In this document: in pieces, positions 10,074 to 54,545 of the stretch
Position numbering within the stretch: position 1 is the first letter of the stretch
Layout of the letters: every line of letters begins with the position of its first letter
NCBI GenBank assembly: GCA_035495775.1
Contig: DATJFG010000133.1
Location: forward strand, 10,178 to 74,177
Length of the DNA stretch: 64,000 nucleotides
Source: Verrucomicrobiia bacterium
GTDB lineage: Bacteria; Desulfobacterota; Binatia; UBA9968
Reading direction: 5' to 3'
The notes under the pieces: generated by a model
Told to the model about the DNA's origin: nothing
Database searches by the model: none
Seen by the model: the letters and a program-made list of their open reading frames with translations, nothing else
Program-made: the position numbers and the translations under genes

Positions 10074-10089
10074 TGGCATCCTTATTGCT
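10074..10089 (+). promoter_or_regulatory. sigma54 promoter TGGCAT-cctta-TTGCT
   Basis: Exact -24 GG / -12 GC spacing; just upstream of the kinase-fusion gene. Confidence 0.6.
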
Positions 10090-14427: not shown

Positions 14428-14443
14428 AGCAACTGCTATGCCA
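14428..14443 (-). promoter_or_regulatory. sigma54 promoter TGGCAT-agcag-TTGCT for B12-radical SAM gene
   Basis: Plus strand AGCAACTGCTATGCCA; reverse complement has exact consensus spacing; 42 nt upstream of start at 14386. Confidence 0.6.
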
Positions 14444-25012: not shown

Positions 25013-25822
25013 ATGACCGCCGCCGAATTCATCAACCGCTTTGTTCTTGCCCGCTCGGCCTATCGGCGCCGCGATACCGAGGCGGCCGAAGCGGCGCATG
25101 CGCATCACCATCTCGAACTATCGCTCTATGAGACCGGGCGGCACGGCCAGCATTTGGCCGACGCGGTGCTCGGGGCGACCGACGGCGTCGTCACAACCTT
25201 CGCAGTCGTCGCCGGCGCAGCGGGCGCGCACCTCTCCTCGGGTGTCGTCCTCATCATGGGCTTTGCCAATCTTTTAGCCGACGGCCTGTCCATGGCGATC
25301 GGCAATTATCTCGGCGCTCGTTCGCAGCGCGATTTCTGGCGCGAGGAACGCGAACGGGAAATCTGGGAGATCGAGCAAATTCCCGAGGCGGAGCGTGAAG
25401 AGATCCGCCGGCACTACCGCCGCAAAGGCTTCGAAGGGGATTTTCTCGAACACGCGGTCGGCCTCATCACGTCCGATAAAGAGCGCTGGCTCGATGAAAT
25501 GATGCGCGAAGAGCTCGGCATCCGCGAAGAAAAGACCGCGCCGGGCATGAGCGGTATCGTCACGTTCGCGGCATTTTCGCTGGTCGGCCTTCTGCCTCTG
25601 ATCTCTTACACGATTGCGTTCTTCTATGCCGATTTTCTGAGGAGCGCGTTTACAGTGTCGATTGCTCTTACGGCCGGCGCGTTGTTCGCCGTCGGCGCGG
25701 CGCGCTGCTTCATTACGCGCCGTACCTGGTGGCGGAGCGGCTTCGAAATCCTCGCATTGGGCGGCGCCGCCGCTCTGTGCGCGTACGCCGTCGGCTATTT
25801 TTTGCAGGCTTTGGTTGGCTGA
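25013..25822 (+). CDS. VIT1/CCC1 (vacuolar iron transporter) family membrane protein
   Basis: Conserved GATDGVVTTFAVVAG and second half LVGLLPLI TM blocks; 269 aa. Confidence 0.7.
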   Translation: MTAAEFINRFVLARSAYRRRDTEAAEAAHAHHHLELSLYETGRHGQHLADAVLGATDGVVTTFAVVAGAAGAHLSSGVVLIMGFANLLADGLSMAIGNYLGARSQRDFWREEREREIWEIEQIPEAEREEIRRHYRRKGFEGDFLEHAVGLITSDKERWLDEMMREELGIREEKTAPGMSGIVTFAAFSLVGLLPLISYTIAFFYADFLRSAFTVSIALTAGALFAVGAARCFITRRTWWRSGFEILALGGAAALCAYAVGYFLQALVG

Positions 25823-25835
25823 AAAGGAGAGCTCT

Positions 25836-26171
25836 ATGACCGTCGAAACGACTGCGGCAACGCCGCTCAGCTTAAGAGAGCATCTTTGGATGGCGCTCGT
25901 CGTCGGGTTTTTGCTGCTCGTCTCGATCGCCTGGACACGGCTGGCGGTGAATGCGTCCGAAGGGCCGCAAAAGAGCGACGGTTATGTCCGGCGCGAGAAA
26001 AAGCCGGTGCTCTCGCCCGCGCTTTTCGTCGGCCAGACGGCGAAGGCCTACCGCATCGCGCAGGAGATTCCCGATGTTCTCGACCAGCTCTACTGTTATT
26101 GCGAATGCGACAGGCACCTCGGGCATAAGAGCCTGCTCTCGTGTTTCACCGATGATCACGGCGCCGGCTGA
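25836..26171 (+). CDS. PCYCGC-motif membrane-anchored protein. The ORF ends at an in-frame TGA and may continue to 26279 as a selenoprotein.
   Basis: TM helix then YCYCECDRHLGHKSLLSCFTDDHGAG; TGA at 26169. The downstream in-frame peptide VNICQGEALDASQMLKQGYSIKQIRAEIDKKYARR runs to TAA at 26277. Confidence 0.55.
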   Translation: MTVETTAATPLSLREHLWMALVVGFLLLVSIAWTRLAVNASEGPQKSDGYVRREKKPVLSPALFVGQTAKAYRIAQEIPDVLDQLYCYCECDRHLGHKSLLSCFTDDHGAG

Positions 26172-26286
26172 GTGAACATCTGCCAAGGAGAGGCGCTGGA
26201 TGCGTCTCAAATGTTGAAGCAGGGCTACAGCATCAAGCAGATTCGCGCCGAGATCGATAAGAAATACGCCCGGCGCTAAAATAAAC

Positions 26287-28313: not shown

Positions 28314-30680
28314 ATGTCCCGAGCAAATTTAAGCAGGCGCGACTTTCTCCGCCAGACCGCCGCTCTCGCCGCGGCATCGGGCGTATCGCCGAGTGTTTTT
28401 TTCGCCAAGGAGGCCGACGCCGAAGAAGCGGTCGTCGATGCCTGGCAAAAAGCGCCGTGCCGCTTCTGCGGCACGGGCTGCGGCGTTCTAGCCGGAATAC
28501 GCAAAGGCAAGATCGTCGCCGTGCGAGGCGATCCCGAGGCGCCGGTCAACCGCGGGCTTCTCTGTATCAAAGGTTACAGTCTGCCGAAGATCCTCTACGG
28601 CTCCGACCGCTATACGACGCCGCTGCTGCGCCAAGGCGATGAGTTTGTCCCGATCACCTGGGAAAGCGCGCTCGATCTCATGGCCGCCAAGTTCAAGCAG
28701 GCGATCGAAAAATCCGGACCGGAATCGGTCGGCGCTTACTTCTCGGGGCAATCGACGATTTTCGAGGGCTACGCGATCAATAAGCTGATGAAGGGCGGCA
28801 TCGGTTCGAACAACATCGAGGGCAATCCGCGGCTCTGCATGGCTTCGGCCGTCACCGGATTCTACTCGACGTTCAATATGGACGAGCCGATGGGCTGCTA
28901 CGACGATTTCGAGCTCACCGACACCTTTTTTCTCTGGGGCTCGAACATGGCGGAAATGCATCCTATGCTTTACTCGCGCATTGTCGAGCGCAAGCGGCAA
29001 GACCCCGCCGTCAAGATCGTGAGCCTCCAGACCTTTACGAACCGCAGTGCGGAAGCTCCGGCCGATATCGTTATGGTCTTCAAGCCGCAGTCCGATCTCG
29101 CCATCGCCAACGCCATGGCCCACGTGGTCGTCAAAGAGGGGCTCATCGACGAGAACTTCATCCGCAAGCACGTGAATTTTAAACGCGGTCTCACCAACAT
29201 CGGCTACGGCGTCGAAGACCGCTTCGAATACGGCGGCGCGGAGCCGAGCTGGAAAACCTTTCGACCCTTCGCCGACAAAGGCGAGCCGGTAAGCTACGAC
29301 GATTACAAAAAATTTCTCCAGACCTACACGCCGGAATACGCCGAAAAGATCTCGGGCGTGCCGGCGCAGATAATCCGAGAGGCGGCGCTGCTATTCGGCG
29401 ATCCCAAGCGCAAGGCGGTTTCCCTTTGGACGATGGGGTTCAACCAGCACACCCGCGGCACTTGGATCAATAATTTGCTCTACAACCTGCACCTGCTGAC
29501 GGGAAAAATCGCCGCGCCGGGAAACAACCCGCTATCGCTCACGGGGCAGCCGTCCGCCTGCGGCACGACGCGCGAGACCGGCGCGCTCGCGCATCTTCTT
29601 CCCGGCGGTCATTTCGTCGCCAACGAAGAGCACCGAAAGGAGGCGGCGGAAATCTGGGGTGTCGCGCCGGAGAAGATCTCTCCCAAGCCGGGTTATCATA
29701 CGATGGAGCTGTTCCGCGCCTTGGACCGCGGCGACGTTAAAGTGCTGTGGATCAACACGACGAATCCATTTCAGACGCTGCCGCGCGCCGGCCGCTACCG
29801 ACAGGGCGCGCGTAAAGGCGGGGAGCGCTTTTTGATCGTGTCGGAGGTCTACCCGAGCGAGACGTCGCGTTACGCCGATCTCATCCTGCCGTCTGCGATG
29901 TGGATCGAGAAGGAAGGCATGTTCGGGAATACCGAGCGCCGCACGCAGCATTGGGCGAAGATGGTCGAGCCGCCCGGCCAGGCGAAAGGCGATCTATGGC
30001 AAATCGTCGAGCTGGCGAAGCGCTTGGGTCTGGGGAAACTTTTCGACTACGGCGCGGAGCCGCTGGAGAAATCCTTATTCGAAGAATATCGCAAGTTCGG
30101 CTCGGGAAGAGGAAAGGATCTCGCTCCGTACGATGTCTACGCAAAGGTTCGCGGCGGACTTAGGTGGCCGGTGGTCGACGGCAAAGAAACTCGCTGGCGC
30201 TATCGCGAAGGTCACGATCCCTACGTCAAGGCCGGCGAGGAGGTGCGCTTTTACGGCCAGCCGGACGGCCGCGCGGTTATTTGGCTGCGGCCCTACGAGG
30301 CGCCGGCGGAAGCGCCGGACGGCGATTATCCCTTCTGGCTCAGTACCGGCCGCGTCCTTGAGCATTGGCACACCGGAACGATTACGCGGCGCGTTCCCGA
30401 ACTCCACGCGGCTTTTCCCTTCGCCCCGGTTTGGATCAATCCCGATGACGCCAAGGCCATGGACGTCAAGACCGGCGACCGCATGCGCATCCAATCCCGC
30501 CGCGGCGAGATTGTCGCGCGCGCCGAGCTGGGCGGCAGGAACACGGTGCCGAAAGGCTTCGTTTACGTGCCGTTTTTCGATGAGAGCGTGCTGATCAATT
30601 TGGTGACGCTGGACGCTTTCGATCCCATTTCCAAACAGCCGGACTTCAAGAAATGCGCCGTCCGATTAGAGAAAATATAG
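28314..30680 (+). CDS. napA: periplasmic nitrate reductase catalytic subunit NapA (molybdopterin oxidoreductase)
   Basis: Tat signal SRRDFLRQTAALAAA; N-terminal [4Fe-4S] motif CRFCGTGCGV typical of NapA; ~788 aa. The track ORF starts upstream, but the ATG at 28314 with GGAGG RBS fits. Confidence 0.85.
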   Translation: MSRANLSRRDFLRQTAALAAASGVSPSVFFAKEADAEEAVVDAWQKAPCRFCGTGCGVLAGIRKGKIVAVRGDPEAPVNRGLLCIKGYSLPKILYGSDRYTTPLLRQGDEFVPITWESALDLMAAKFKQAIEKSGPESVGAYFSGQSTIFEGYAINKLMKGGIGSNNIEGNPRLCMASAVTGFYSTFNMDEPMGCYDDFELTDTFFLWGSNMAEMHPMLYSRIVERKRQDPAVKIVSLQTFTNRSAEAPADIVMVFKPQSDLAIANAMAHVVVKEGLIDENFIRKHVNFKRGLTNIGYGVEDRFEYGGAEPSWKTFRPFADKGEPVSYDDYKKFLQTYTPEYAEKISGVPAQIIREAALLFGDPKRKAVSLWTMGFNQHTRGTWINNLLYNLHLLTGKIAAPGNNPLSLTGQPSACGTTRETGALAHLLPGGHFVANEEHRKEAAEIWGVAPEKISPKPGYHTMELFRALDRGDVKVLWINTTNPFQTLPRAGRYRQGARKGGERFLIVSEVYPSETSRYADLILPSAMWIEKEGMFGNTERRTQHWAKMVEPPGQAKGDLWQIVELAKRLGLGKLFDYGAEPLEKSLFEEYRKFGSGRGKDLAPYDVYAKVRGGLRWPVVDGKETRWRYREGHDPYVKAGEEVRFYGQPDGRAVIWLRPYEAPAEAPDGDYPFWLSTGRVLEHWHTGTITRRVPELHAAFPFAPVWINPDDAKAMDVKTGDRMRIQSRRGEIVARAELGGRNTVPKGFVYVPFFDESVLINLVTLDAFDPISKQPDFKKCAVRLEKI

Positions 30681-30688
30681 GTGGGCTC

Positions 30689-30985
30689 ATGACGAAAATC
30701 ATTTTCCCGATTCTTTTCGTGGCATTTCTCGCCTTATCGACCGCGCAGGACTCTCCCGCAGAAGAGAGTCAGCGGTTGCCGCGCTCTTATCCTGGAGCGC
30801 CGCCTCTGATTCCGCACGATGTGGAGGCGCGAAAGGGACTTTGTCTCACCTGTCATGAAACCGGAGTGGCTGAGGCGCCGATCGTTCCGCATCCGACGCG
30901 TGATCCGGTATGCCTGGAGTGCCATGTCGGCCAAGACCGTACGGCGAAAGAGTTCCGTAGCTCCACTCAGCCGGCTAAGCAGTAA
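30689..30985 (+). CDS. napB: diheme cytochrome c NapB, small subunit of periplasmic nitrate reductase
   Basis: Signal peptide, two CxxCH (CLTCH, CLECH), LIPHD region; ~98 aa; immediately downstream of napA. Confidence 0.75.
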   Translation: MTKIIFPILFVAFLALSTAQDSPAEESQRLPRSYPGAPPLIPHDVEARKGLCLTCHETGVAEAPIVPHPTRDPVCLECHVGQDRTAKEFRSSTQPAKQ

Positions 30986-31066: not shown

Positions 31067-31543
31067 TCAAGCCGCTGCAACAGCCGGCTTCAGCTGCGGC
31101 TGTGGTCGGATAGACAGAACGGGGCAGGATGATTTCCGCACGACGTTTTCCGTGACGCTTCCCGTGAGCATGTGCGATAGCCCTGTCCTGCCATGCGTTG
31201 AGATGACAATGAGATCGACATTCTCCTGGGCGACCTTCTCTACGATATTTTCGTCTGGATTGCCTACTTCAACGATAGCTTCCAACCCTTCCACCGGCAG
31301 CAAATCGCTACAGTGCGCTTCGATGAAGCTCGCGAGCAGCTGACGATGCTTCTTCAACAGCTTTTCAAGCAGAATCGGCTTGACGTGCAAGAGCTGGAAG
31401 CGGACAAATTCGTCAAGGCAAAGCACGTGATAGACGATGACCTTGCAGCCGGACTCTTTGGCCATCTCAAGCGCCGTACGCAAGCCGACAAGCGAAAGCT
31501 CCGATAAATCCGTCGGCGCCAGAATCTTTCCAATTTTTTTCAT
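31067..31543 (-). CDS. universal stress protein (UspA family)
   Basis: 158 aa; USP fold blocks (ILAPTDLSE..., VIVISTHGRTGL..MLTGSVTENVVRKSSCPVL). Confidence 0.85.
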   Translation of the reverse strand: MKKIGKILAPTDLSELSLVGLRTALEMAKESGCKVIVYHVLCLDEFVRFQLLHVKPILLEKLLKKHRQLLASFIEAHCSDLLPVEGLEAIVEVGNPDENIVEKVAQENVDLIVISTHGRTGLSHMLTGSVTENVVRKSSCPVLSIRPQPQLKPAVAAA

Positions 31544-31588
31544 CGTCCGATCCTCTCGGTTAGTGGGAGTTTTCTATTTTTTGCTTCA

Positions 31589-31603
31589 GCACAAAGCATG
31601 CCA
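31589..31603 (-). promoter_or_regulatory. possible sigma54 promoter variant TGGCAT-gcttt-GTGCT upstream of usp
   Basis: Plus strand GCACAAAGCATGCCA; GG/GC spacing correct, -12 is GTGC. Confidence 0.3.
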
Positions 31604-31769
31604 CCCATAACGAGTAAATCTCCAGGAAAAAGCCTGTCTCTACATGGCTTTTTCCACTTTTTAAGAGAATGGCGCTTAAAATTCGCATTGAAGCGAAAAA
31701 TTCCCTCGCCCTCTTCAGTAAGTTGTGCTATTTTTCCACGGCATAAAGCTTGCTGTGTGGTTTCGGCGC

Positions 31770-32510
31770 ATGAGGAATCGGCTCATAATTACGTCCGCTT
31801 TTTCCTTCCTCATCACCTCCTTTATTTTTTCAGCGGCTCTGTCTTTCGCCTACGATGAGATCGCAGTTGCCAACGGCGGTGCGATCAAAGGCACGGTCCG
31901 GTTTACCGGCGGTCTGCCGAAGCTCGCCCCCCCCGTCGTGACGAAGTTCAAAGAGGTCTGCCAGGGCGTTCCGAATGAAAGCCTGGTCAGCGGTCCGGGA
32001 CAGGGAATCCGCTATGCCGTCGTCACGCTTGAAGGCGTCGCCAAAGGACGTCCCATCGAGCGCGAAGTCGTCCATGAAATCGACAACGTAAAATGTCGCT
32101 TCGCGCCCCATGTGATCGTCGCGGAGGTGGGGCAGTTTATCGTCTTCAAGAACAGCGATCCGATACTCCATACGGCGCACGCTTTATTCCAGGGCGATCA
32201 GCCGCAATTCAACGTCGGCCTCTATCCTGGACGCGTCAGCCGCAAGCCGCTGACGATGCCGGGAATCGTAAAGATCATTTGCGAAGTCCATTCATGGATG
32301 AGCGCCTACGTCGGGGTCACCGATCACCCGTATCACGCCGTCACGGACGCCTACGGTGAATATTTAATCCAAGATGTGCCGCCGGGCGTCTACCGGCTGA
32401 AACTATGGCATGAGACTTTGGGCGTCCAGGAGAAAGATATCGAAGTGAAAGCGGCTACGACTGCGCAGGTCGACTTCAGCATGTCGCAAAAATCGGGAGA
32501 AAAGAAATGA
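31770..32510 (+). CDS. secreted cupredoxin-like (type-1 copper, C-x2-H-x2-M) domain fused to carboxypeptidase-regulatory-like beta-sandwich domain
   Basis: Signal peptide; ligand candidates H (PILHTAHALF) and CEVHSWM (amicyanin-like C-x2-H-x2-M); C-terminal YGEYLIQDVPPGVYRLKLWH CarbopepD_reg-like. Confidence 0.5.
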   Translation: MRNRLIITSAFSFLITSFIFSAALSFAYDEIAVANGGAIKGTVRFTGGLPKLAPPVVTKFKEVCQGVPNESLVSGPGQGIRYAVVTLEGVAKGRPIEREVVHEIDNVKCRFAPHVIVAEVGQFIVFKNSDPILHTAHALFQGDQPQFNVGLYPGRVSRKPLTMPGIVKIICEVHSWMSAYVGVTDHPYHAVTDAYGEYLIQDVPPGVYRLKLWHETLGVQEKDIEVKAATTAQVDFSMSQKSGEKK

Positions 32511-33124
32511 TCCGGCCGTGGCTGATCATATCGGTTTTGCTCGCTCTGGATTTTTCATCTGCGCTGGCGGCAGAGCCGGCAAACGGCGTCATTAAGGGAT
32601 CCATCACCATCGGCGGCCGGCCGACCGCCGATGCCGTCGTTTCCTTGGAGGGGTTCTCGCCGAAGGCTGTAAAGCCGCAATCAGCCGCCAGCAAAACGAA
32701 AGCCGTCATCGATCAAAAAGATCTCAAATTTAATCCGCGCGTGCTGGCCGTGATGGTGGGCAAGACCGTGGATTTTCCGAATCACGACAAGACTTTCCAC
32801 AACGTCTTTTCGACCTCAGAGGCGAAAAAATTCGATCTCGGTCTCTATCCGTCGGGCCAAAGCCGCAGCGTCAATTTCGACAAGCCGGGCGTCGTCAAAA
32901 TCTTGTGTAATGTCCATCCAAACATGGAGGCCTACGTTGTCGTCAAGGCGCACCCGTACTTCAGCGTTCCCGACGACCGCGGCAATTATTCCATCAAGGG
33001 TGCGCCGATGGGTAAATATCGCGTCGAGGTGTGGCATCCACAATTCGGCGTCAAAAGCGTTCCCGTGGAGCTGGTGCGAGACGGCGAAGTCCTCGCGATC
33101 AATTTGGATTTAAAGGACAAATAG
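32507..33124 (+). CDS. paralog of preceding gene: cupredoxin-like + carboxypeptidase-regulatory-like domain protein
   Basis: FHNVFS ... CNVHPNM (C-x2-H-x2-M) ... GNYSIKGAPMGKYRVEVWH; ATGA overlap. Confidence 0.5.
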   Translation: MIRPWLIISVLLALDFSSALAAEPANGVIKGSITIGGRPTADAVVSLEGFSPKAVKPQSAASKTKAVIDQKDLKFNPRVLAVMVGKTVDFPNHDKTFHNVFSTSEAKKFDLGLYPSGQSRSVNFDKPGVVKILCNVHPNMEAYVVVKAHPYFSVPDDRGNYSIKGAPMGKYRVEVWHPQFGVKSVPVELVRDGEVLAINLDLKDK

Positions 33125-33250: not shown

Positions 33251-34213
33251 ATGATCCAACGACCTCTGAAGGATTTCGTTTTCCGCTGTCTTGTAAAATT
33301 TTCCGCAGCGGCTGTTTTCTTCATTCTAACCGCAGCCGCCTGGTCTGCGGACGCACCTCCACCCGAGCCTACCTACGTCGGCAGCGACGTCTGCAAGGCC
33401 TGTCACGCGCCTCAATTCGAGCAGTTCTCGCAGACGCAGATGGGCAAAATATTTTTATTCAACGCCCGCACGCTGCGCGAGAAACAAGCCTGCGAATCTT
33501 GCCACGGACCCGGCAGCAATCACGTCGCCGCCGGCGGCGGCCGGGGCGTCGGCGGGCTGATCTCGTTTCGTAAAGACGCCGAGCCGGGAAAAGTGCAAAA
33601 CGGCGCCTGTCTCCAATGCCATGAGAAGGGCATGCATACGTATTGGGAGGCGAGCCCGCATGCGAGCCGCGGGCTCACCTGCACGAACTGCCACACCGTC
33701 ATGCACAAGACGACCGACCGCTACCAGCTCGCGAAGGTCGACGACAAGACCCCGTTTTTCTGGAAGCGCGCCGATATCGAGGTCTGCGGGCAATGCCATC
33801 TGCAGAGAAAAGCGCAGCTCATGCGCTCCTCACACATGCCGATGCGCGAAGGAAAGATCGGCTGCAGCGACTGCCACAATCCCCATGGAACGCCGAATCC
33901 GTCCCAGCTGAAACAGGCAAGTGTCAATGAGAACTGTTACACGTGCCACACCGAGCGGCGCGGGCCCTTCCTATGGGAGCATCCGCCGGTCATCGAGAAC
34001 TGCACGAATTGCCATGAGCCGCATGGTTCGGTCAACGACCGGCTGCTAAAGGTCACAGACCCGCGTCTCTGCACGCAGTGCCACCAGACGGCATTTCACC
34101 CCTCGACGCCGCGCGGGAAGAATTCGGCCTTTTTCTTCAACCGCAGCTGTACGAATTGTCATAGTCAGGTCCACGGCTCGAATCATCCAGCTGGGATATT
34201 CTTCCAGAGATAA
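33251..34213 (+). CDS. periplasmic decaheme c-type cytochrome, MtrA/MtoA/PioA family
   Basis: Signal peptide and 10 CxxCH motifs in 320 aa (CKACH, CESCH, CLQCH, CTNCH, CGQCH, CSDCH, CYTCH, CTNCH, CTQCH, CTNCH). Confidence 0.85.
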   Translation: MIQRPLKDFVFRCLVKFSAAAVFFILTAAAWSADAPPPEPTYVGSDVCKACHAPQFEQFSQTQMGKIFLFNARTLREKQACESCHGPGSNHVAAGGGRGVGGLISFRKDAEPGKVQNGACLQCHEKGMHTYWEASPHASRGLTCTNCHTVMHKTTDRYQLAKVDDKTPFFWKRADIEVCGQCHLQRKAQLMRSSHMPMREGKIGCSDCHNPHGTPNPSQLKQASVNENCYTCHTERRGPFLWEHPPVIENCTNCHEPHGSVNDRLLKVTDPRLCTQCHQTAFHPSTPRGKNSAFFFNRSCTNCHSQVHGSNHPAGIFFQR

Positions 34214-34225
34214 GGAGGTCGGAAC

Positions 34226-36535
34226 ATGAAAACCATCAAGCGGTCCCGCGCGATTATTACCGGCTTGGCGACGTCGGTGGTTCTGGCCTTCAGCGGTCTC
34301 GCCGCGGCGGAGGTCGAATTCGCCGATCTGGTCGCCAGCGGCAGCGCAGAGATCGGTGGCGTCCCCGGCACGAGAACCGGCGGCAATGAGGGGAAATCGA
34401 AGTTCGAGGAATATCGTGAGACCGGCCTCGGCGGCTGGATCGTTCCCGAGCTGCAGTTGTTCCTCGGCGGCAAGAAAAACGACTTCTTCGTCAGCTTCGA
34501 TTCCACCAAGCCGGGTTTCAGGGATCAAAATTATCGCCTCCGCTTCGGCCTCTACGGCCTCCTCGACATCGAGGCGGAATGGGATCAGATCCCGCATCTC
34601 TTCGACGAGGGGATCTCCCGCACGCCCTTCCGCCGCGACGGCGGCACGTTCCATCTGGACGGCAAACCGACCACCAACATTTCAACTTCGGCTCACTGTG
34701 ATGCGCAGCCGGCGACGAATTTTTGCCATTTTCTCGATAAGGGAAATACGCACCCCGTCGATTTGGGGCTGCTCTACGGCATCGGCCGTTTTAAAATCAA
34801 ATACACGCCCCTTCCGGGCTGGACATTAAACGCCGGTTACTGGTCGCAGCACGTCGGCGGCGACCGCGCGTTCGGAACGATATTCGGCACGCCCGGGAAC
34901 TTTTCCGTGGTCGAGCTCCCCGAGCCGATCGACTATCAGATGCACAACGTCGAGCTCGGCGGGGAATACGCGGCAGACTGGTGGTCGGTGGGGCTTAGGT
35001 ATCAGGGCTCGTTCTTCCACAACAACATCAGCACGCTGATTTGGGACAATCCGCTGAACCTCACCGGCGTCGGCGGCGGCTGCTCCGACTCGGCGACCTT
35101 CAGCAATGCCACCAACGGAGTGGACGCCAACCGCGGCCCGTGCCGTGGGCGGCTCGACCTCTATCCCAGCAACCAGGCGCATACGTTCACGCTCACGGGC
35201 GCGGCGACTTTACCCTGGAAGACGCGTTTCATGGGAACCGCCTCCTACGGCTGGCGGCTCCAGGACGACAAGTTTCTTCCCTTCACGATCAATAGCGCGA
35301 TCACCCAGCCGGCCATGTCCGCGCACAGCCTCGACGGGGACGTCCGGCCGACGATGATCAACGCCACGGTCGTCAACAACGCGATCGATCATCTGAACCT
35401 TAAGGCCTACTATCGCTATTTCGATCTGGACAATCAGAGCCGCAGGGTCTCTTTCCCCGACGGCATCGTCATCAACGATCAGGCGGGCACCGCGGTAAGC
35501 CCCAATTGCCCGCCCGCCGGCGCGAGCTGCGGGGACGCCGAGAGAACCAACCGCTACGCCTATTCCAAGCAGAACATCGGCTTCGACGCCGGATATGACT
35601 TGACCCGCTGGCTGACGGTTAAACTCGGAACAGGCTGGGAGAAGATGCATCGGGAATTCCGCGAGGTCAGAAACAGCGATGAATACGGCGTCGGCCCGAC
35701 GGTCGACGTCAAGCCGTTATCGTCGCTTCTGCTCCGCGCGAGCTACCGCCATTCGTGGCGCAACCCCTCTCATTATAATCTCGACGAGGAGAACATCGCC
35801 AAGAAGTTCGACGAGGCGCGACGGAACCGCGACCGCGCGAGTCTCTTCGCGCAATATACACCGTGGGAGATTTTAAACCTCTACGCCGGATTCGAGTTTA
35901 CCAAGGACGATTATCCCGACAGCCGCCTGGGCACTCAATTCGATTTCAATTATTCGCCCTCGGCGGGCTTTGCGCTAATGCCGTACAAATGGCTCAAGTT
36001 TTTCGGCGATTACAATTGGGACCGCTACGACTGGCAGCTCGATGCGATACAACGAAGCGCGGCTTTGGAGACTCCCGACGCCGTGAATTGTCCGAAGAGC
36101 GGACCGACCCGCTGCTGGACGAGCCGCGGCCTGGACCGAGTCCACACGTTGTCGTTCGGCAGCGACGTGACTCTGATTGAAAACGTCCTCGGCTTCCGCA
36201 TCCAGTACGGCTATTCGTTCGGCACCAGCCGAGTGAACGCCTCGGGCGCCACCTGCGGCGGCTGCACCCGGGCGACGAACTATCCGACGATTAACAATAG
36301 CTGGCAAGAGCTGCTCGCCCGTTTTGAATATCAGGTCATGAAGAACGTCGGTTTAAGGGTGGGCTACTACTTCAACCGTGCCCGCGACAACGACCACGGC
36401 GTCGATATCATGAAACCGTGGATGGGCGATGTCGACCCCAGCGCGAGTGTGCAGCATTCTGTGTTTCTCGGCGACCGCATCAAAGGTCCGTTCACGGCGC
36501 ACGTCGGCTTCGTCGCTTTGAAATTCAGTTTCTAG
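34226..36535 (+). CDS. outer-membrane beta-barrel porin of MtrB/MtoB/PioB family
   Basis: Signal peptide, 769 aa, alternating amphipathic beta-strand pattern, C-terminal ...ALKFSF aromatic terminus; AAGGAGG RBS; gene order matches mtrAB/mtoAB/pioAB. Confidence 0.7.
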   Translation: MKTIKRSRAIITGLATSVVLAFSGLAAAEVEFADLVASGSAEIGGVPGTRTGGNEGKSKFEEYRETGLGGWIVPELQLFLGGKKNDFFVSFDSTKPGFRDQNYRLRFGLYGLLDIEAEWDQIPHLFDEGISRTPFRRDGGTFHLDGKPTTNISTSAHCDAQPATNFCHFLDKGNTHPVDLGLLYGIGRFKIKYTPLPGWTLNAGYWSQHVGGDRAFGTIFGTPGNFSVVELPEPIDYQMHNVELGGEYAADWWSVGLRYQGSFFHNNISTLIWDNPLNLTGVGGGCSDSATFSNATNGVDANRGPCRGRLDLYPSNQAHTFTLTGAATLPWKTRFMGTASYGWRLQDDKFLPFTINSAITQPAMSAHSLDGDVRPTMINATVVNNAIDHLNLKAYYRYFDLDNQSRRVSFPDGIVINDQAGTAVSPNCPPAGASCGDAERTNRYAYSKQNIGFDAGYDLTRWLTVKLGTGWEKMHREFREVRNSDEYGVGPTVDVKPLSSLLLRASYRHSWRNPSHYNLDEENIAKKFDEARRNRDRASLFAQYTPWEILNLYAGFEFTKDDYPDSRLGTQFDFNYSPSAGFALMPYKWLKFFGDYNWDRYDWQLDAIQRSAALETPDAVNCPKSGPTRCWTSRGLDRVHTLSFGSDVTLIENVLGFRIQYGYSFGTSRVNASGATCGGCTRATNYPTINNSWQELLARFEYQVMKNVGLRVGYYFNRARDNDHGVDIMKPWMGDVDPSASVQHSVFLGDRIKGPFTAHVGFVALKFSF

Positions 36536-36556: not shown

Positions 36557-36940
36557 ATGCAATGGATCATCTTGATTGGTGCGTTAGTGATTTTCTCATT
36601 TTCCTCTCCGGCCAGCACATGGGCGCAGTCAAAAGGGGATGCCAACGCTGGAAAAGCAAAATACGAATCTCTATGCGCGGGCTGTCACGGGAAAACAGGT
36701 AAGGGCGACGGCCCGGCGGCGGCGAGCTTGAACCCCAAGCCGCAGGATCATACCGATGGCAAAGTCATGAATGCTCTCAGCGATCAATACCTGACGGACA
36801 TTGTCAAGAACGGCGGCGCATCGGTTAAAAAATCGCCGCTGATGCCCGCGTGGGGCAAGACGTTGAAGGACCAAGAAGTAGCGGATGTAATCGCCTATAT
36901 AAGAAGCTTGGCCAATCCTCCCTACAAGTCGGGGAAATAA
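36557..36940 (+). CDS. monoheme class I cytochrome c (MtoD-like candidate)
   Basis: Signal peptide, single CAGCHG, distal Met region; 127 aa. Confidence 0.8.
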   Translation: MQWIILIGALVIFSFSSPASTWAQSKGDANAGKAKYESLCAGCHGKTGKGDGPAAASLNPKPQDHTDGKVMNALSDQYLTDIVKNGGASVKKSPLMPAWGKTLKDQEVADVIAYIRSLANPPYKSGK

Positions 36941-37065
36941 GGACGCTCTATTCCCTGTCGGCCTGGAACGTTTTCATTCGGCGGCGAATCGACATCGGCG
37001 GCAGCCGCTTGTAATCATCGATCGGCATATTAAAATTACATAGCAGATTCACAGGAGGAATCATC

Positions 37066-37389
37066 ATGAAAATCTTCGTAGCCATGCTTGGTTTTTTCCT
37101 CGCTGCAGCGCTGTCCGGCGTTGGCTGGGCCGCCGATGCCGGCAAGGCTGTGTATGACAAACAGTGCGCCTCGTGCCATGGACCCGACGGCAAGGGGAAT
37201 CCATCGATGGCGAAGGTTTTTGGCGAGAAGCAACTCAACATCGCCACAAAGGAAGTCGCGGATAAGAAAGACGACGAGCTCGTCAAGGTGATTACCGAAG
37301 GTAAAGGCAAAATGCCGGCCGCGGGCAAGTCGCTGAACGCCGCAGATCAAAAAGCCGTCGTAAGCCACGTAAAGTCTCTCGGGAAGTAG
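37066..37389 (+). CDS. monoheme class I cytochrome c
   Basis: Signal peptide, CASCHG; 107 aa; paralog of 46495-46845 product. Confidence 0.8.
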   Translation: MKIFVAMLGFFLAAALSGVGWAADAGKAVYDKQCASCHGPDGKGNPSMAKVFGEKQLNIATKEVADKKDDELVKVITEGKGKMPAAGKSLNAADQKAVVSHVKSLGK

Positions 37390-37417
37390 GCGGCAGCAGG
37401 GGAACAACACGGCCTTG

Positions 37418-38599
37418 ATGATAAAAATCATCGCTGCCGCTGCTGTTCTCCTCTGCTTGGCCAGCGCGGCGTTCGCTCAATCGCTCTTCACTTCGGAGCA
37501 GGATCCGACCGCCGGCGCTCGCGTCTTCGGTGCTAAGGGATGCTCGAATTGCCATAGCATCGAAGGGCTCGGCGGCAAAATCGGCCCCGATCTCGCGCGC
37601 ACCCAGCAAGGCCGCTCGTTTTACGATCTCGCCGCCGCCATGTGGAACCATCTTCCAGGCATGGCGGACAAGATGCGGGAGTTGAAGATCCAGCGGCCGC
37701 TTCTCAGCGCCGAAGATGCGGCCAACCTGATCGCGTTCCTTTTTACGCTCCAGTATTTTGACCGTCCTGGAAATGTCGATGCAGGCAAACGTCTCTTCGC
37801 GGAAAAAAAATGCGTTGTTTGCCATCAACTGAACGGCACCGGCGGCGTCGTCGGCCCGAATCTCGACGGGCTTAAAGATTATGGCTCGCCGCTCTTCATC
37901 GCCGCTGCTATGTGGAATCACGGACCATCGATGGCCGCGGTTATGCGTGAAAAGAGGATTGCACGGCCGTCGTTCAGGGGTTCGGAACTGACCGATCTCA
38001 TCACATATATAAAATCGGCGGCGACGGCGAAAAGCGAGTCGCCGGTGACTGTTTTGACCGGCTCTCCCGAACGCGGCCGGCGACTTTTCGCCGATAAGCA
38101 CTGTCTCGAGTGCCATAGTGTCGCGAGTCAGGGAGGAAAAATCGGGCCGGATCTGGCGGATAAAGCGCTCCACCGAAGCATTCTCGATTTCGCAGCGGCG
38201 ATGTGGAACAAAGCGCCGGCGATGCTCGCGGCGATGAAGACCCGCAAAGTCGCTGCTCCGAGACTAGAACCCGAAGAGATGGCCGACATCGTCGCCTATC
38301 TTTACTCCGTCCAGTACTTTGCGCGCCCGGGCAACGCGAAAAGGGGGCGCGAGATTGCCTCCCAAAAAGGATGCTTTAGCTGCCATGGCGTAGCTGGCGT
38401 CGGGGATAAGTCCGCGCCGAGTTTTTCGCAGATCAAGGACATCGACTCGCCGGCGACCGTGATCGCGGCGATGTGGAATCATTCGTTTCTCACGGATCGA
38501 CCGTTGCAGGGTCAAAAAACGCTTTGGCCGCAGTTTCGTGCCGACGAGATGGCGGATTTGGCGGCCTATTTGCAAACGAGTGGCCGGGGGCCGACATGA
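37418..38599 (+). CDS. tetraheme cytochrome c built from four tandem class-I cytochrome c domains
   Basis: Four ~95-aa repeats, each with CxxCH (CSNCH, CVVCH, CLECH, CFSCH), a GPDL/GPNL turn and an AAAMWNH motif. Confidence 0.8.
   Translation: MIKIIAAAAVLLCLASAAFAQSLFTSEQDPTAGARVFGAKGCSNCHSIEGLGGKIGPDLARTQQGRSFYDLAAAMWNHLPGMADKMRELKIQRPLLSAEDAANLIAFLFTLQYFDRPGNVDAGKRLFAEKKCVVCHQLNGTGGVVGPNLDGLKDYGSPLFIAAAMWNHGPSMAAVMREKRIARPSFRGSELTDLITYIKSAATAKSESPVTVLTGSPERGRRLFADKHCLECHSVASQGGKIGPDLADKALHRSILDFAAAMWNKAPAMLAAMKTRKVAAPRLEPEEMADIVAYLYSVQYFARPGNAKRGREIASQKGCFSCHGVAGVGDKSAPSFSQIKDIDSPATVIAAMWNHSFLTDRPLQGQKTLWPQFRADEMADLAAYLQTSGRGPT
37480..38590 (+). repeat. 4x intragenic tandem repeat (~285 nt units) encoding cytochrome c domains
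   Basis: Repeated protein blocks G(A/E)(R/K)..F..K.C..CH......G.(I/V)GP(D/N)L....FAAAMWN. Paralogous at protein level, nucleotide divergence substantial. Confidence 0.6.
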
Positions 38600-39849
38600 G
38601 CGCTTTGCGCGCATACGGAGTGTTTTTGTGTTTCGTTTTCCTGGGGCTCGCTGCCTTGTCGTCGGCGGCCGAACCGGAGAGTTGCGTCGCCTGCCATCAA
38701 GCGATCGGCGTACCCAAGCTCACCCAGCCGGTCAAAGATTTTCCCCAGGACATCCACGCAGTCAAGGGGTTTGGCTGTGTCGCCTGTCACGGCGGCGACG
38801 CCAAAGACCCCGGCATGACGGCCATGGACAAGACCAAAGGCTTCATCGGCGCGCCGACGCGAAAAGATCTTCCACAGGTGTGCGGACATTGTCATTCCGA
38901 TGCGCGTTTCATGCGGCAATACAATCCATCCCTGCGCGTCGATCAGGTTGCGGAGTATTACACCTCGGTCCACGGCCAGCGGCTCGCGCGCAACGGCGAC
39001 GAAAAGGTCGCGGTTTGCACGAGCTGTCACCCGGCGCACTCGATCCGTCCGCCGTCGGACCCGCGCTCCTCGGTCCATCCGCTGAAGGTCGCCGACACGT
39101 GCGGCCGGTGTCACGCCGATGCGAAGTACATGGAGAGCTACAAGATCCCGACCGACCAGCTGCCCAAATATAAAAAGAGCGTGCACTGGCGGATGATGTC
39201 GGCCGGCGGCGATCTCTCCGCGCCCACGTGCAACGATTGCCACGGCAATCACGGCGCCGCGCCGCCGGGAGTCTCTTGGGTCGGGAATGTCTGCGGCCAG
39301 TGCCACGCGCAAAACGAAGAGCTGTTCAGCAAAAGCGTTCACTCCAAAGCATTCGTCAAAATGGGCATTCCCGGCTGCGCCACCTGTCATTCAAACCACG
39401 AGATCGTCCCGCCGAGCGACGCGATGCTCGCGGTCGGCGAGGGCGGCGCCTGCGCGGGTTGTCACACCGCCGAAGACAACGGCGGCAAGACCGCTCTGGA
39501 GATGCATCGGCAGATCGATGCGCTGAGAAACGCCTACGACAAGGCGCATGCCGCTCTGGCGAAGGCTGAGTCTGCCGGCATGGAAGTCAGCCAGCCGCAG
39601 TTTGAACTGAACGGCGCCAAGACCGCGCTCGTCAAGTCGCGCGCGGCAGTGCATGCGTTCAACATCGACGCAGTCAAAAAAGAAGCCGCGCCCGGCATCG
39701 ATATCAGCGGAAAAGTCTATGCCAGGGGCGTCAAAGCGCTCGATGAATTGCAATTCCGCCGCAAGGGGCTCGCGGTCTCCGCGCTGATCATCGCCGGGTT
39801 GATCGTCGGCCTGGTCTTGAAAATACGAGAGATGGAGAAGCCGAAGTGA
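38596..39849 (+). CDS. nonaheme c-type cytochrome with C-terminal membrane anchor
   Basis: Signal peptide; 9 CxxCH; C-terminal TM helix GLAVSALIIAGLIVGLVL; ATGA overlap with upstream gene. Confidence 0.8.
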   Translation: MSALRAYGVFLCFVFLGLAALSSAAEPESCVACHQAIGVPKLTQPVKDFPQDIHAVKGFGCVACHGGDAKDPGMTAMDKTKGFIGAPTRKDLPQVCGHCHSDARFMRQYNPSLRVDQVAEYYTSVHGQRLARNGDEKVAVCTSCHPAHSIRPPSDPRSSVHPLKVADTCGRCHADAKYMESYKIPTDQLPKYKKSVHWRMMSAGGDLSAPTCNDCHGNHGAAPPGVSWVGNVCGQCHAQNEELFSKSVHSKAFVKMGIPGCATCHSNHEIVPPSDAMLAVGEGGACAGCHTAEDNGGKTALEMHRQIDALRNAYDKAHAALAKAESAGMEVSQPQFELNGAKTALVKSRAAVHAFNIDAVKKEAAPGIDISGKVYARGVKALDELQFRRKGLAVSALIIAGLIVGLVLKIREMEKPK

Positions 39850-39875
39850 GAGATTCCAACGCCTCAGGAGATAAC

Positions 39876-40331
39876 ATGTCCGACGGAACACTCGATCCGC
39901 GAATCGACCGGAGAAACTTCTTAAACTGGTTTCTAGGTACGACGGCAGGCGCTTTTCTCGTCGCGGTTCTGTACCCGCTGAGCCGCTACCTTATCCCTCC
40001 AAAGGTCGAGGAGTCGACCGCCAAGAATGTTACACTTTCGATCAAACCCGGCGACGTCAAAGTCAACAGCGGCGAGATTTTCCGCTTCGGCAACCAGCCG
40101 GCGATTTTGGTTCGGACCCCCGCCAACGAGCTCAAAGCGTTCTCGGCGGTCTGCACGCATCTGTCCTGTATCGTTCAATACCGATCGGACCTGAGCCATA
40201 TCTGGTGCGCGTGCCACAACGGCCACTATGATCTCAACGGTAAAAATATCATCGGCCCGCCGCCCAAGCCGCTCGAAGCATACACCGTCAACGTCAAGGG
40301 CGACCAGATCGTTGTGAGCAAGACGGCGTGA
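39876..40331 (+). CDS. Rieske [2Fe-2S] iron-sulfur subunit of a cytochrome bc-type complex
   Basis: Tat motif RRNFLNW, TM helix, CTHLSC...CACHNGHY Rieske boxes; ATG at 39876 with AGGAGA RBS preferred over GTG at 39846. Confidence 0.85.
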
Positions 40332-40336
40332 CGCTT

Positions 40337-41434
40337 ATGGAACCGACGACGGAAAAGCACGGCAAGCTCTGGAACTGGTTCGACGCGCGCGTCGGACTGA
40401 AAGATTTGGACAAGCTTGCCAAAAAAAAGCAGGTACCGCTGCACAGGCACAGTTCGTGGTACTACTTCGGCGGCATGACGCTGTTTCTCTTCACGGTTCA
40501 GGTGATCACGGGCATCTTGCTGCTACTGTACTATCGGCCGAGCTCAGGCGAGGCCTACGAATCGGTGCAATTTCTCATGACGGAAGTCGAGTTCGGCTGG
40601 CTCGTCCGGTCGATTCACGCGTGGTCCGCCAATCTGATGATCTTTACGCTGTTCGTCCATCTGTTCAGCACGCTGATGCTCAAGGCGTACCGCCAACCGC
40701 GGGAGCTGACCTGGCTTTCCGGCATGGGCTTGATGGCTCTGACATTGACGTTCGGTTTTACCGGTTACCTGCTCCCGTGGAACAAGCTCGCGTTCTTCGC
40801 CACCAGCGTCGGGACGGAAATCCCCGGGGTTCTGCCGGTCGTGGGCGCGTTTCTCCGCAGACTGCTTCGCGGCGGCGATGAGGTAACGGGCGCCACGCTG
40901 ACGCGGTTTTACGGCATCCACGTCGCCGTCCTTCCTGCGCTCGTTTCCTCGCTGATCGGCGTCCATCTCTTTTTGGTGCAAAAGCATGGCATGAGCGTTC
41001 CTCCGAGCGTCGCCGGGCAGGCGAGCCCGCCGCGAACGATGCCGTTCTTTCCCAACTTTTTCCTGCGTGACGCGGTCGGCTGGCTCTGCGCGCTGGCGGT
41101 GCTTGCGACGCTGGCGGCGTTCTATCCGGCGGAGCTCGGCGAGAAGGCCGACCCGTTTCAGCCGGCGCCGATCGGTATCAAGCCTGAATGGTATTTCATG
41201 TTCATGTTCCAGACGTTGAAGCTGCTGCCGAGCTACATCCTCGGCATCGAAGGCGAGCTCGTGGGTATTCTCGCATTCGGCGCAGGGGGGCTGTTTCTCG
41301 CGCTGATTCCGTTCCTCGATCGTGCATCGGCACGCGGCGAGCGCAGCCAGCTTTTTGTCTGGATCGGCAGCGCGATCATTCTTTACATGCTGGTTTTAAC
41401 TTATCTGGGATACACGATGAGCGCGACAAAGTAG
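40337..41434 (+). CDS. cytochrome b (b6/subunit IV fused type) of bc complex
   Basis: [11 protein letters not shown]-terminus like b6 YDWFEERL; heme-ligand His in TM helices ([22 protein letters not shown]); PEW-like loop LLPWN; 366 aa. Confidence 0.85.
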
Positions 41435-41463
41435 CTTGTACGTATCGTTGAACGCAGGACAAG

Positions 41464-42570
41464 ATGAAAACGGCCGAGTCCATTTCAATCATCGTCGTCT
41501 TCTTCGGTGCGGTTTTTCTCATCTCCTCGATTTCTTTCGCTCAGACTATCGCGTTTCCGAAAGATTGTGTCAGTTGCCACGGTTCCGAAGCGAAATATCC
41601 GGTACGCGGCGTGCGCAGCCAGTATCTGACTTCCGGCCATCGAACCATCGGCAACGCCTCGTACGCCAACGCCGACGATTGTCAGGGTTGTCATACGAAC
41701 GAAGGATTTATCGACAGGGCGAAGACCGGGAAGGTCGATACCAAGAAATACGTACGCTATCCATCGGAAATCGGCTGCTTCACCTGCCACGCTCCGCACG
41801 ACAGAGGCGACTTCTCGTTGCGTAAGACGACGGCTGTCACGCTCGCCAACGGCACCACCTACGACCGAGGCAAAAGCAATTTATGCGCGAGTTGCCATCA
41901 AGCCCGGCGCACAGCCAAAGAAGAAGTGAAGGCGCGAGTCATCCCGAGCGACAGCTGGGGCGCTCACCATGGGCCGCAAGCGGATATGCTTCTCGGCACG
42001 AATGCGTATGAGTACTCGGGAAAGAAATATTCCAAATCACCACACGCGGTTTTATCCAACGCCGACTGTATCACCTGCCACATGGCCCTCCCGAACGGAC
42101 GCTATTCGCTCGCCCCTTCGATCGGCGGGCACAGCTTTAATGTCGCAGGCGAGGTGCACGAACGGCCGACGGTCAACGCGGCGGGATGCCTGTCGTCAGG
42201 CTGCCATACGGAGATGAAACAGATCGAAGGAAAACCCTTCTTCGATCGCAAGGCAGCGGCGGATTACGATGGCAACGGCAAAATCGAAAGCATCCAAGAA
42301 GAAGTGCAAGGGCTCCTTAACAAGCTCATCAACGAGCAAGGCACCGGCCTTTTGCAGACGATGAAAAATCCTCCCTACGACGCAAAAGGAAAATTTATCG
42401 AGAATAAGGTTTCGTATCCCGTCGAGGTCACGGCGGCTCTTTACAATTACAAATTCGTCAAAGAAGACGGCAGCCGAGGGATCCACAATACTACATACGC
42501 CGTCGAGCTCTTGATCGATTCCATCCACGCGTTGAACAAAGATTTCGACGATTCCAAACGGCCGCAATAA
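41464..42570 (+). CDS. hexaheme c-type cytochrome subunit of the bc complex
   Basis: Signal peptide; CVSCH, CQGCH, CFTCH, CASCH, CITCH plus non-canonical CLSSGCH (CX4CH). Confidence 0.75.
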   Translation: MKTAESISIIVVFFGAVFLISSISFAQTIAFPKDCVSCHGSEAKYPVRGVRSQYLTSGHRTIGNASYANADDCQGCHTNEGFIDRAKTGKVDTKKYVRYPSEIGCFTCHAPHDRGDFSLRKTTAVTLANGTTYDRGKSNLCASCHQARRTAKEEVKARVIPSDSWGAHHGPQADMLLGTNAYEYSGKKYSKSPHAVLSNADCITCHMALPNGRYSLAPSIGGHSFNVAGEVHERPTVNAAGCLSSGCHTEMKQIEGKPFFDRKAAADYDGNGKIESIQEEVQGLLNKLINEQGTGLLQTMKNPPYDAKGKFIENKVSYPVEVTAALYNYKFVKEDGSRGIHNTTYAVELLIDSIHALNKDFDDSKRPQ

Positions 42571-42600
42571 AAGGCCGGCCGAGAAGTCGGCGGATCGTCA

Positions 42601-44565: not shown

Positions 44566-44603
44566 GCGGACGAGGGATCGACAAAAAGGAAGGATAAGTC
44601 TTA

Positions 44604-46918: not shown

Positions 46919-47049
46919 CCAATCCCACTCAGCCGAATCCTCAGCTCAAAAACGCGTCTCTAGATTCCGATCAAGTTGTTGACAACCCCCGCGCCTTAGC
47001 TTTAGGCTCACTTTCGTTCGTGATCGTTTTCCTTGCGGCTGAGACAACA

Positions 47050-48393: not shown

Positions 48394-48523
48394 AGCATTT
48401 CCGCTACGCCCAGTAGCTAAGCCGCTACCACGGCACGAGCACTGGCCTCGGCCGGCATCGACACCCTTCAAGAATCCGCCGTTATTTTCATGACTTGACT
48501 TAGGTCAACCGCTCGCGTCATTG

Positions 48524-48539
48524 TGGCACGGCCATTGCG
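48524..48539 (+). promoter_or_regulatory. sigma54 promoter TGGCAC-ggcca-TTGCG
   Basis: Perfect -24/-12 consensus; 100 nt upstream of the SBP/sensor-kinase cluster; palindrome TTGACTTAGGTCAA 18 nt upstream. Confidence 0.6.
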
Positions 48540-48641
48540 CCAGATTGGGGTAGAGAAAACGTATCTTTGCAGTAACCTTGATGATCATGGGGATAAATCT
48601 GCTCCGCCTACATGGTCTGAGGACGGTGAGGATGAGGGAAG

Positions 48642-50621: not shown

Positions 50622-50693
50622 CTTCATCATTCAAGTGCGGAGTCCCTGCGTAGAATGCGCCGGGTGAAATGTTGATTTCGGTAGAGTAAGATC

Positions 50694-53484: not shown

Positions 53485-53501
53485 AACCAAGGAAAGCAAA
53501 C

Positions 53502-54506: not shown

Positions 54507-54545
54507 TTTTACATTGTCGATGCTCTAGCATGGATGAAATAAACT

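Follow-up and report, generated by a model that had tools for sequence, protein, structure and literature searches.

Two tandem genes for predicted blue-copper proteins with a nested cupredoxin domain, encoded in a respiratory gene island

What is the function of two small predicted copper proteins that are encoded between a periplasmic nitrate reductase and a multihaem outer-membrane conduit? The question is raised by a 64,000-nucleotide stretch of contig DATJFG010000133.1 (the window, that is, the whole stretch analysed), in which two adjacent genes, here called A and B, are listed in GenBank as a 'carboxypeptidase regulatory-like domain-containing protein' (HTM10111.1) and a 'plastocyanin/azurin family copper-binding protein' (HTM10112.1). 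Our analysis indicates that both are very probably type-1 copper proteins whose cupredoxin domain is predicted to be inserted into a second β-sandwich. As to function, we propose, with a probability of roughly one half, that A and B work as a pair and carry single electrons in the periplasm for the respiratory island next to them.

A type-1 copper site in a nested cupredoxin domain

A and B lie in tandem on the plus strand and are paralogs (34% identity over 186 residues, E 2e-29, BLASTP). An earlier note, written from the letters of the window alone, had described them as secreted tandem paralogs with the putative blue-copper motifs CEVHSWM and CNVHPNM and an upstream His, and each of these points holds: the motifs are exact in the translation, as are the upstream histidines within LHTAHA (A, 32166–32183) and FHNVF (B, 32795–32809), and both proteins appear exported, with N-terminal signal peptides by inspection. 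Database searches returned 542 relatives of B and 790 of A; C-x2-H-x2-M is kept in 120/120 of the best homologues of either protein and in 84/84 related loci fetched from many phyla, so homologues do not lack the Cys/His/Met set. In joint alignments of 141 sequences covering both paralogs, the ligand columns H98/C134/H137/M140 of B and H134/C171/H174/M177 of A are invariant. As judged from sequence, the conservation of His and C-x2-H-x2-M lies far beyond chance. The spacing is that of the amicyanin ligand loop, the shortest type-1 loop, and both proteins have it; HMMER aligns their ligands to the PHNV and C-T-A-H-P-F-M segments of amicyanin (1sf3, a P94A mutant chain).

Profile searches place B in the plastocyanin/azurin family (PF00127, 32.3 bits against a cut-off of 21.2, rising to 35.5 bits for the excised domain). 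B also matches the NCBIfam amicyanin, pseudoazurin and plastocyanin models, all far under their equivalog cut-offs. A has no match to a cupredoxin hidden Markov model in Pfam, either intact or with the domain excised, and we assign it to the type-1 cupredoxins because of its paralogy to B, its ligands and its predicted fold. The cupredoxin fold expected in the earlier note is borne out by confident AlphaFold2 monomer models (predicted local distance difference test (pLDDT) 87.2 and predicted template modelling score (pTM) 0.80 for B; 87.1 and 0.81 for A), in which both proteins would form a Greek-key cupredoxin β-sandwich. Both models match amicyanin and plastocyanin; for A, Foldseek retrieved plastocyanin, pseudoazurin and the cupredoxin domain of NirK (TMt 0.6–0.74). 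An amicyanin-like type-1 site thus has good support from both the sequence and the predicted fold, and we expect both proteins to bind copper.

Amicyanin itself (MauC; TIGR02657, PDB 1aac) was considered and rejected. The ligand loop is of like length, but identity is only about 25%, B scores 27.6 bits against an equivalog cut-off of 110.2 and A does not match the model at all. Whereas amicyanin is a free 105-residue domain encoded in the mau cluster with methylamine dehydrogenase, the A/B domain is nested in a second sandwich as part of a coupled pair, and no methylamine dehydrogenase subunits were found among the annotated neighbours.

The second domain is a carboxypeptidase regulatory-like sandwich (CarboxypepD_reg, PF13620; profile length 82, gathering threshold 32.3 bits). 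In the intact proteins, only profile positions 19/21–81 are matched, C-terminal of the cupredoxin. When the cupredoxin was removed in silico (joining residues 24–50 and 148–205 of B, and 33–47, 78–90 and 185–246 of A), the score of A rose from 33.1 bits (profile 21–81) to 48.5 bits (profile 2–81), and that of B from 24.9 to 31.4 bits over the full length (2–81), just under the threshold. Because excision restores a full-length match, we place the cupredoxin in the loop that connects host strands 2 and 3; in both proteins it is predicted to be inserted between these strands of a transthyretin-like sandwich, for which the models indicate the seven-stranded fold. The earlier note was right in pairing a cupredoxin with a carboxypeptidase-regulatory-like sandwich, but not in having the sandwich simply follow it, as the excision test places the cupredoxin inside. 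Matches to PDB profiles span either the cupredoxin or the sandwich and never both, so that no solved structure with the nested arrangement was found. This topology appears to be undescribed.

Both chain termini of a cupredoxin lie at the pole opposite the copper, and the copper site of A and B would therefore point away from the host domain. The sandwich may thus serve as a pedestal, with the copper site and its exposed His facing outwards. Blue-copper proteins are classic electron carriers, and those characterised so far either stand alone as one free domain or are attached to an enzyme. In copper nitrite reductase and multicopper oxidases (C-terminal cupredoxins, 6hbe and 9cck) and in the purple cupredoxin of Nitrosopumilus (5fc9), the cupredoxin is appended to a catalytic enzyme, whereas the host in A and B is a small non-catalytic sandwich, joined by insertion. 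Conversely, known CarboxypepD_reg/transthyretin-like domains, such as those of carboxypeptidase D (5aq0) and the N-terminal extension of SusC (9hfj), are contiguous, carry no nested domain or metal centre and have structural or docking roles.

A differs from B in having an extra loop, roughly 36 residues long, that joins host strands 1 and 2, and in a set of invariant or near-invariant residues that B does not share, namely C64 and C109 (101/101), H102, H114, H137 and W176. The two cysteines could form a disulfide that ties the A-specific loop to the cupredoxin, and H102, H114 and H137 are possibly a second metal site. Conserved in both paralogs are H186 of A (H149 of B) and a Trp-His pair at 213–214 of A (176–177 of B).

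The family is very large and occurs widely among uncultured bacteria of soils and sediments. Scanning a single genome for each species gave at least 575 stretches that encode a member, the closest relatives being in metagenome-assembled genomes (MAGs) of Candidatus Binatia and 'Deltaproteobacteria' and the more distant ones in Acidobacteriota, Myxococcota, Eisenbacteria, Verrucomicrobiota, Gemmatimonadota and others. A single Bryobacter member retrieved 3701 proteins, and a profile search of 1.84 billion representatives gave 12,728 matches at E ≤ 1e-10, including unrelated proteins with multiple CarboxypepD_reg repeats and others with several cupredoxins. The earlier statement that this is not a standard cupredoxin architecture is thus accurate for characterised proteins only; in databases it is common (at least 575 species genomes, 3701 proteins). 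Pipelines name the family inconsistently, as 'plastocyanin' (the JGI label for most relatives), 'plastocyanin/azurin family copper-binding protein', 'carboxypeptidase regulatory-like domain-containing protein' or 'methylamine utilization protein' (the label of one Bryobacteraceae relative), and a practical gain of the present analysis is a better annotation than the first and last of these. Automated annotation already shows which domains are present, and the copper site is a canonical one, so we do not regard A and B as a new kind of system. Our literature searches found no paper that pairs a cupredoxin with a carboxypeptidase regulatory domain, or PF13620 with PF00127, and nothing relevant on a 'methylamine utilization protein' linked to a histidine kinase, or on multihaem proteins or extracellular electron transfer in Binatia.

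A coupled gene pair in a respiratory neighbourhood

The genes overlap by 4 bp, and the same overlap recurs in the orthologous loci L001, L003, L008, L016 and L017, where readable. Together with the GGGAG Shine-Dalgarno sequence upstream of B, the ATGA overlap implies translational coupling of A and B. Periplasmic export is likely for both proteins from their N-termini as inspected by eye: B begins with a cleavable-looking Sec signal peptide (residues 1–22, …SSALA/AEP), and A with a hydrophobic segment (residues 1–27, hydrophobic stretch of about 22 residues) that may act as a signal peptide (…LSFA/YDE) or, alternatively, anchor the protein in the membrane. A GTG at 31725 offers an alternative start for A, which would give a possible longer form of 261 residues.

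Upstream of A, we found a candidate sigma-54-type −24/−12 element (Table 1). A second element points the other way in the same intergenic region, towards the universal stress protein (Usp) gene, and the divergent elements are conserved in position in orthologous loci. L007 has a perfect TGGCACGAGGCTTGCT at the same position; the element there carries one mismatch in L006, L008 and L012 and two in L010, and the orthologous intergenic sequence around it is otherwise diverged. The background of the pattern with at most one mismatch is 0.0035 per 200 nt. Across the window the pattern is not enriched (24 observed against 22.7), so only its positional conservation counts. Further sites with at most one mismatch lie upstream of other window genes, at 8281–8296 (−), 10074–10089 (+), 14428–14443 (−) and 48524–48539 (+). 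A scan for sigma-70 promoters and terminators around the genes gave no promoter and one terminator-like site just upstream of the Usp gene, which was not above shuffled sequences. The 126 bp that separate B from the decahaem cytochrome gene downstream contain no predicted terminator, so co-transcription of A–B with the latter is possible.

In the mechanism we propose, A and B would be transcribed from the sigma-54-type promoter and translated in a coupled manner. A shared promoter and coupled translation would yield equal amounts of the two proteins, which probably act as a pair or heterodimer. Single-chain fusions with two complete modules (P0386, P0390, P0393 and P0396, some with two copper motifs and some with one lost) support the idea of two modules working together.

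Profile scores identify the genes on either side. NapA scores 1073 bits against a cut-off of 904 (NF010055) and NapB 32.9 bits against a Pfam gathering threshold of 25.1; the decahaem cytochrome (HTM10113.1) begins 126 bp downstream of B and is followed by the MtrB/PioB porin (HTM10114.1). With above-cut-off scores on both flanks, the position between napAB and the decahaem/porin pair given in the earlier note is secure. The cytochrome cluster beyond the porin encodes first two monohaem cytochromes c (36557–36940 and 37066–37389), a 4-haem cytochrome c and a 9-haem cytochrome, and then a b6f-type Rieske protein, cytochrome b and 5-, 11- and 12-haem cytochromes, of which the 11-haem protein has a b561-type membrane domain. 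No oxidase was found in the window.

We compared this arrangement with 17 Binatia-type loci (L001–L017), in which the counterpart of B shares 46–100% identity with it. In 15 of the 17, A immediately precedes B, and a Usp gene on the minus strand precedes A in L001–L003, L005, L007 and L010. Respiratory genes recur near A–B in shuffled orders. The window reads NapAB, Usp, A–B, decahaem, MtrB/PioB, cytochromes c, 9-haem, Rieske, cytochrome b and 5-/11-/12-haem proteins; L012 has A–B, MtrAB, 9-haem, Rieske and cytochrome b; L001 has A–B, an EB_dh haem-domain protein, cytochromes c, multihaem proteins, Rieske and cytochrome b, the EB_dh protein taking the place of MtrAB in L001–L003; L017 has Rieske, cytochrome b, cytochrome c, A–B and multihaem proteins; L005 has multihaem proteins, Usp and A–B; and in L008 MtrAB lies 6 kb off. 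The synteny of L001, L005, L012 and L017 points to the Rieske/cytochrome b–multihaem cluster as the most constant partner of A–B, rather than Nap or MtrAB specifically. A coupled A–B pair with a sigma-54-type promoter in an extracellular-electron-transfer/Rieske–cytochrome b island appears to be undescribed.

In the reading we prefer, A and B would most likely pass single electrons between the periplasmic haem proteins of the island, that is, the decahaem/porin conduit, the soluble cytochromes c and the Rieske/cytochrome b complex with its multihaem subunits. Electrons would run from the decahaem conduit or the cytochromes to copper, and onwards to a high-potential acceptor or back into the Rieske/cytochrome b complex, although partners and direction are our inference. 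Blue-copper centres are high-potential and MtrA-type haems low-potential, so flow from the conduit and cytochromes to copper is to be expected, as with rusticyanin in iron oxidation. Such a role as electron shuttles, which the earlier note also suggested, would fit the synteny of the Binatia-type loci.

An analogy can be drawn to rusticyanin of Acidithiobacillus ferrooxidans (rus/petI), though on functional grounds only. Rusticyanin is a blue-copper protein of the periplasm whose gene lies with that for an outer-membrane cytochrome, and it acts in a pathway in which electrons enter at the outer membrane and pass through cytochromes c to an oxidase or uphill to the bc1 complex. The A–B neighbourhood follows a similar logic, with outer-membrane conduit, cytochromes c and Rieske/cytochrome b; this setting (conduit, cytochromes c and bc1-type complex or oxidase) is full in the window and L012, partial in L001, L005, L008 and L017, and absent from L010, L014, L015 and L016. 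A–B differ from rusticyanin in lying beside MtrAB-type genes rather than Cyc2, in a host not known as an acidophile and in the nested architecture. Rusticyanin is absent from the PDB sequence matches at E ≤ 1, and we find no specific sequence relationship.

The adjacent MtrB/PioB-type conduit, together with the VIT1 iron transporter gene of the island, speaks for a different idea, namely that A and B oxidize a soluble periplasmic reductant such as Fe(II) or Mn(II) directly and are the first electron acceptor rather than a relay. Copper proteins with ferroxidase or Mn-oxidase activity have been discussed for iron oxidizers (PMC12016527), and the cupredoxins of the Sideroxydans magnetite study are different, extracellular proteins (PMC12016527). 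We consider direct oxidation improbable, the least likely of the functions weighed here: A and B each have a single type-1 centre without a substrate-binding or trinuclear site, nothing indicates that the A-specific invariant His and Cys residues form a metal-substrate site, and the nested architecture has no experimental precedent.

Table 1. Positions of the genes, motifs and domains discussed (window numbering; residue numbers for domain layouts)
Feature	Position	Strand	Basis or remark
napA + napB (periplasmic nitrate reductase)	28314–30985	+	upstream of A–B
Usp gene	31067–31543	−	divergent; Pfam Usp 101 bits
Second sigma-54-like element, before Usp	31588–31603	−	pattern search
Candidate sigma-54-type −24/−12 element (CGGCATAAAGCTTGCT)	31739–31754	+	starts 31 nt upstream of A start; pattern search
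Gene A	31770–32510	+	open reading frame, 246 residues from ATG; predicted exported protein
A C64	31959–31961	+	conserved in A paralog, absent from B
A C109	32094–32096	+	conserved in A paralog, absent from B
A His134, N-terminal type-1 copper ligand (putative)	32169–32171	+	invariant column, 141 sequences; translation
A ligand loop C171-E-V-H174-S-W-M177 (CEVHSWM)	32280–32300	+	translation; 120/120 homologues; invariant columns
A domain layout (predicted)	residues 37–45 and 84–88, CarboxypepD_reg strands 1–2; ~91–184, cupredoxin; 185–238, sandwich remainder		
ATGA overlap of A stop and B start, 4 bp	32507–32510	+	GGGAG Shine-Dalgarno upstream
Gene B	32507–33124	+	open reading frame, 205 residues; predicted exported protein
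B His98, N-terminal type-1 copper ligand (putative)	32798–32800	+	invariant column; aligns with amicyanin PHNV; translation
B ligand loop C134-N-V-H137-P-N-M140 (CNVHPNM)	32906–32926	+	translation; 120/120 homologues; amicyanin-loop alignment
B domain layout (predicted)	residues 27–35 and 44–48, CarboxypepD_reg strands 1–2; ~51–147, cupredoxin; 148–203, sandwich remainder		
DmsE/MtrA-family decahaem cytochrome	33251–34213	+	254 bits, above NCBIfam cut-off; 10 CxxCH motifs
MtrB/PioB outer-membrane porin	34226–36535	+	246.5 bits, above NCBIfam cut-off
Cytochrome cluster	36557–46412	+	Pfam/NCBIfam, haem motifs
NtrC-type sigma-54 activator response regulator	47020–48393		
dCache_1-HAMP-GAF histidine kinase	50694–53129		flanked by ABC-type binding proteins

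Sensor-linked relatives in other phyla

Outside the Binatia, the family has another context. In 67 non-Binatia loci (L018–L084; Acidobacteriota, Myxococcota, Eisenbacteria, Verrucomicrobiota, Gemmatimonadota and others), the nested-cupredoxin gene is single-copy, and a transducer gene follows on the same strand within 300 bp in 44 and within 1.3 kb in 51. Among the 59 downstream neighbours that could be called, 30 are HAMP-HisKA-HATPase kinases, 22 of them with a dCache_3 domain (examples are L038:10705–12465, L030:10488–12296 and L083:10445–12289); the others include six HD-GYP proteins, two Ser/Thr kinases, one cyclase and four multihaem cytochromes. Bryobacterales loci add an OmpR-type response regulator and an upstream 475-residue protein without a Pfam match, and another subgroup has an uncharacterized protein of about 400 residues after the kinase. 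The strong tie of the wider family to sensor transducers appears to be undescribed.

These loci, in which single-copy relatives adjoin transducers, suggest that the ancestral role may have been signalling or copper response and not bulk electron transfer, and they speak against an electron-carrier role for A and B, as do the points that follow. Of the roughly 10 Binatia-type loci whose flanks could be used, four (L010, L014, L015 and L016) have few or no cytochrome genes near A–B. The argument in the earlier note from the position between nap and the porin is weak, because high-potential copper is a poor donor to NapAB. Furthermore, our literature search found no experiment on any family member.

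The transducer context raises the tentative possibility, the main rival to the carrier role, that the proteins are redox-sensing (or copper-sensing) co-receptors, which would report the periplasmic Cu(I)/Cu(II) state to transducers through a periplasmic dCache_3 domain; in Binatia, A–B would still act as a sensor and control the respiratory genes nearby by way of a kinase encoded elsewhere. The linkage to dCache_3/HAMP proteins across the family strongly supports this view. That output domains vary while sensor modules are shared is a classic sign of a sensor partner, and the OmpR-type regulators of Bryobacterales and the fusions with a truncated globin in Myxococcota, another redox- or gas-sensing module, fit the same idea. 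In the window, it could also draw on the candidate sigma-54 promoter of A–B and on an NtrC-type activator and a kinase located 14–20 kb downstream. However, around the 17 Binatia-type loci, flanking sequence of up to 10 kb yielded no sensor kinase or other transducer gene, and the kinase in the window carries dCache_1-HAMP-GAF instead of dCache_3 and is flanked by ABC-type binding proteins. We therefore rejected a kinase partner for the A–B pair of the window: none was found in these flanks of up to 10 kb, and the distant kinase is of another sensor type. Duplication to a coupled pair and embedding among cytochromes in shuffled orders are likewise confined to the Binatia type. Because A–B in Binatia are no longer linked to a kinase and have acquired respiratory neighbours instead, we rank the electron-carrier role first and the sensory role second.

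A copper-homeostasis function is unlikely, though slightly less so than direct oxidation of a soluble reductant. A and B would then be periplasmic copper-binding or detoxifying cupredoxins under two-component control, in the manner of CopI and CinA, handling copper supply or buffering for cuproenzymes and not electrons. Cupredoxins are indeed encoded beside copper-responsive two-component systems, CopI with CopRS and CinA with CinRS, each beside a histidine kinase and an OmpR-type regulator, which is the arrangement of the non-Binatia branch; two downstream kinases in that branch weakly match the CusS sensor domain, and B weakly matches CopI (E 0.058). This match amounts to 13.2 bits against a cut-off of 280 (NF051440), and CopI was rejected as an identification. 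Unlike CopI and CinA, A and B have no visible His/Met-rich copper-binding stretch, the kinases linked to the family are mostly of the dCache_3 type and not small CusS/CopS-type sensors, and the pair in the window has no adjacent kinase. In Binatia the setting is a respiratory one, and the annotated neighbours include no copper ATPase, CusCBA or multicopper oxidase.

If the preferred role as paired electron carriers is correct, Binatia-type bacteria may wire an MtrAB-type conduit and a multihaem Rieske/cytochrome b system through copper and not only haem carriers, which bears on iron and mineral oxidation and on nitrate respiration in soils. A bolder and doubtful extension, about as probable as the sensory role, would take the whole family, thousands of proteins from phyla of soil and sediment, as an undescribed periplasmic sensor module in which a transthyretin-like pedestal carries a blue-copper centre. 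Transducers such as dCache_3/HAMP kinases and HD-GYP proteins would then read the oxidation state or copper load of that centre. Among Binatia, this module would have been duplicated to a co-translated pair and recruited to an extracellular-electron-transfer/Rieske–cytochrome b island, either gating expression of the pathway or serving as a two-copper relay. In other phyla, the same module may be the long-sought input for many dCache_3 sensor kinases.

Further observations on the window and the family

The genes described above belong to a 20-kb respiratory island (26287–46412), nearly all on the plus strand, that contains a NapH-like Fer4_5 membrane protein, NapAB, the decahaem protein and porin, three class-I cytochromes c, Rieske/cytochrome b and multihaem cytochromes. 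Just upstream of the nap genes (stretch 25013–26175) lie the gene for the VIT1-family iron/manganese transporter (25013–25822) and, after it, a small PCYCGC-domain gene that was called on a contig with the same gene order as the window. Just downstream of the island is a signalling cluster (47020–55631) that holds, besides the NtrC-type regulator and histidine kinase of Table 1, two ABC_sub_bind proteins, a stand-alone receiver, an NMT1-like binding protein and a receiver-adenylate/guanylate cyclase.

The source MAG is named 'Verrucomicrobiae bacterium' in NCBI, and A, B and the decahaem gene all have their nearest relatives in Candidatus Binatia MAGs (75–91% identity). The discrepancy may reflect a taxonomic mislabel or mis-binning.

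The globin fusions are Myxococcota proteins of 456–475 residues in which a truncated globin (PF01152) is joined to the cupredoxin/CarboxypepD_reg module with the copper motif kept (CNLHAAM, for example); they are encoded at L019:9164–10591 and also in L024, L025, L037 and L082. Proteins of 630–1150 residues (P0387, P0397, P0417, P0425, P0429, P0435, P0453 and P0515) carry five to eight tandem amicyanin-type cupredoxin domains, each with C-x2-H-x2-M, and could, by analogy with multihaem cytochromes, act as 'copper wires'.

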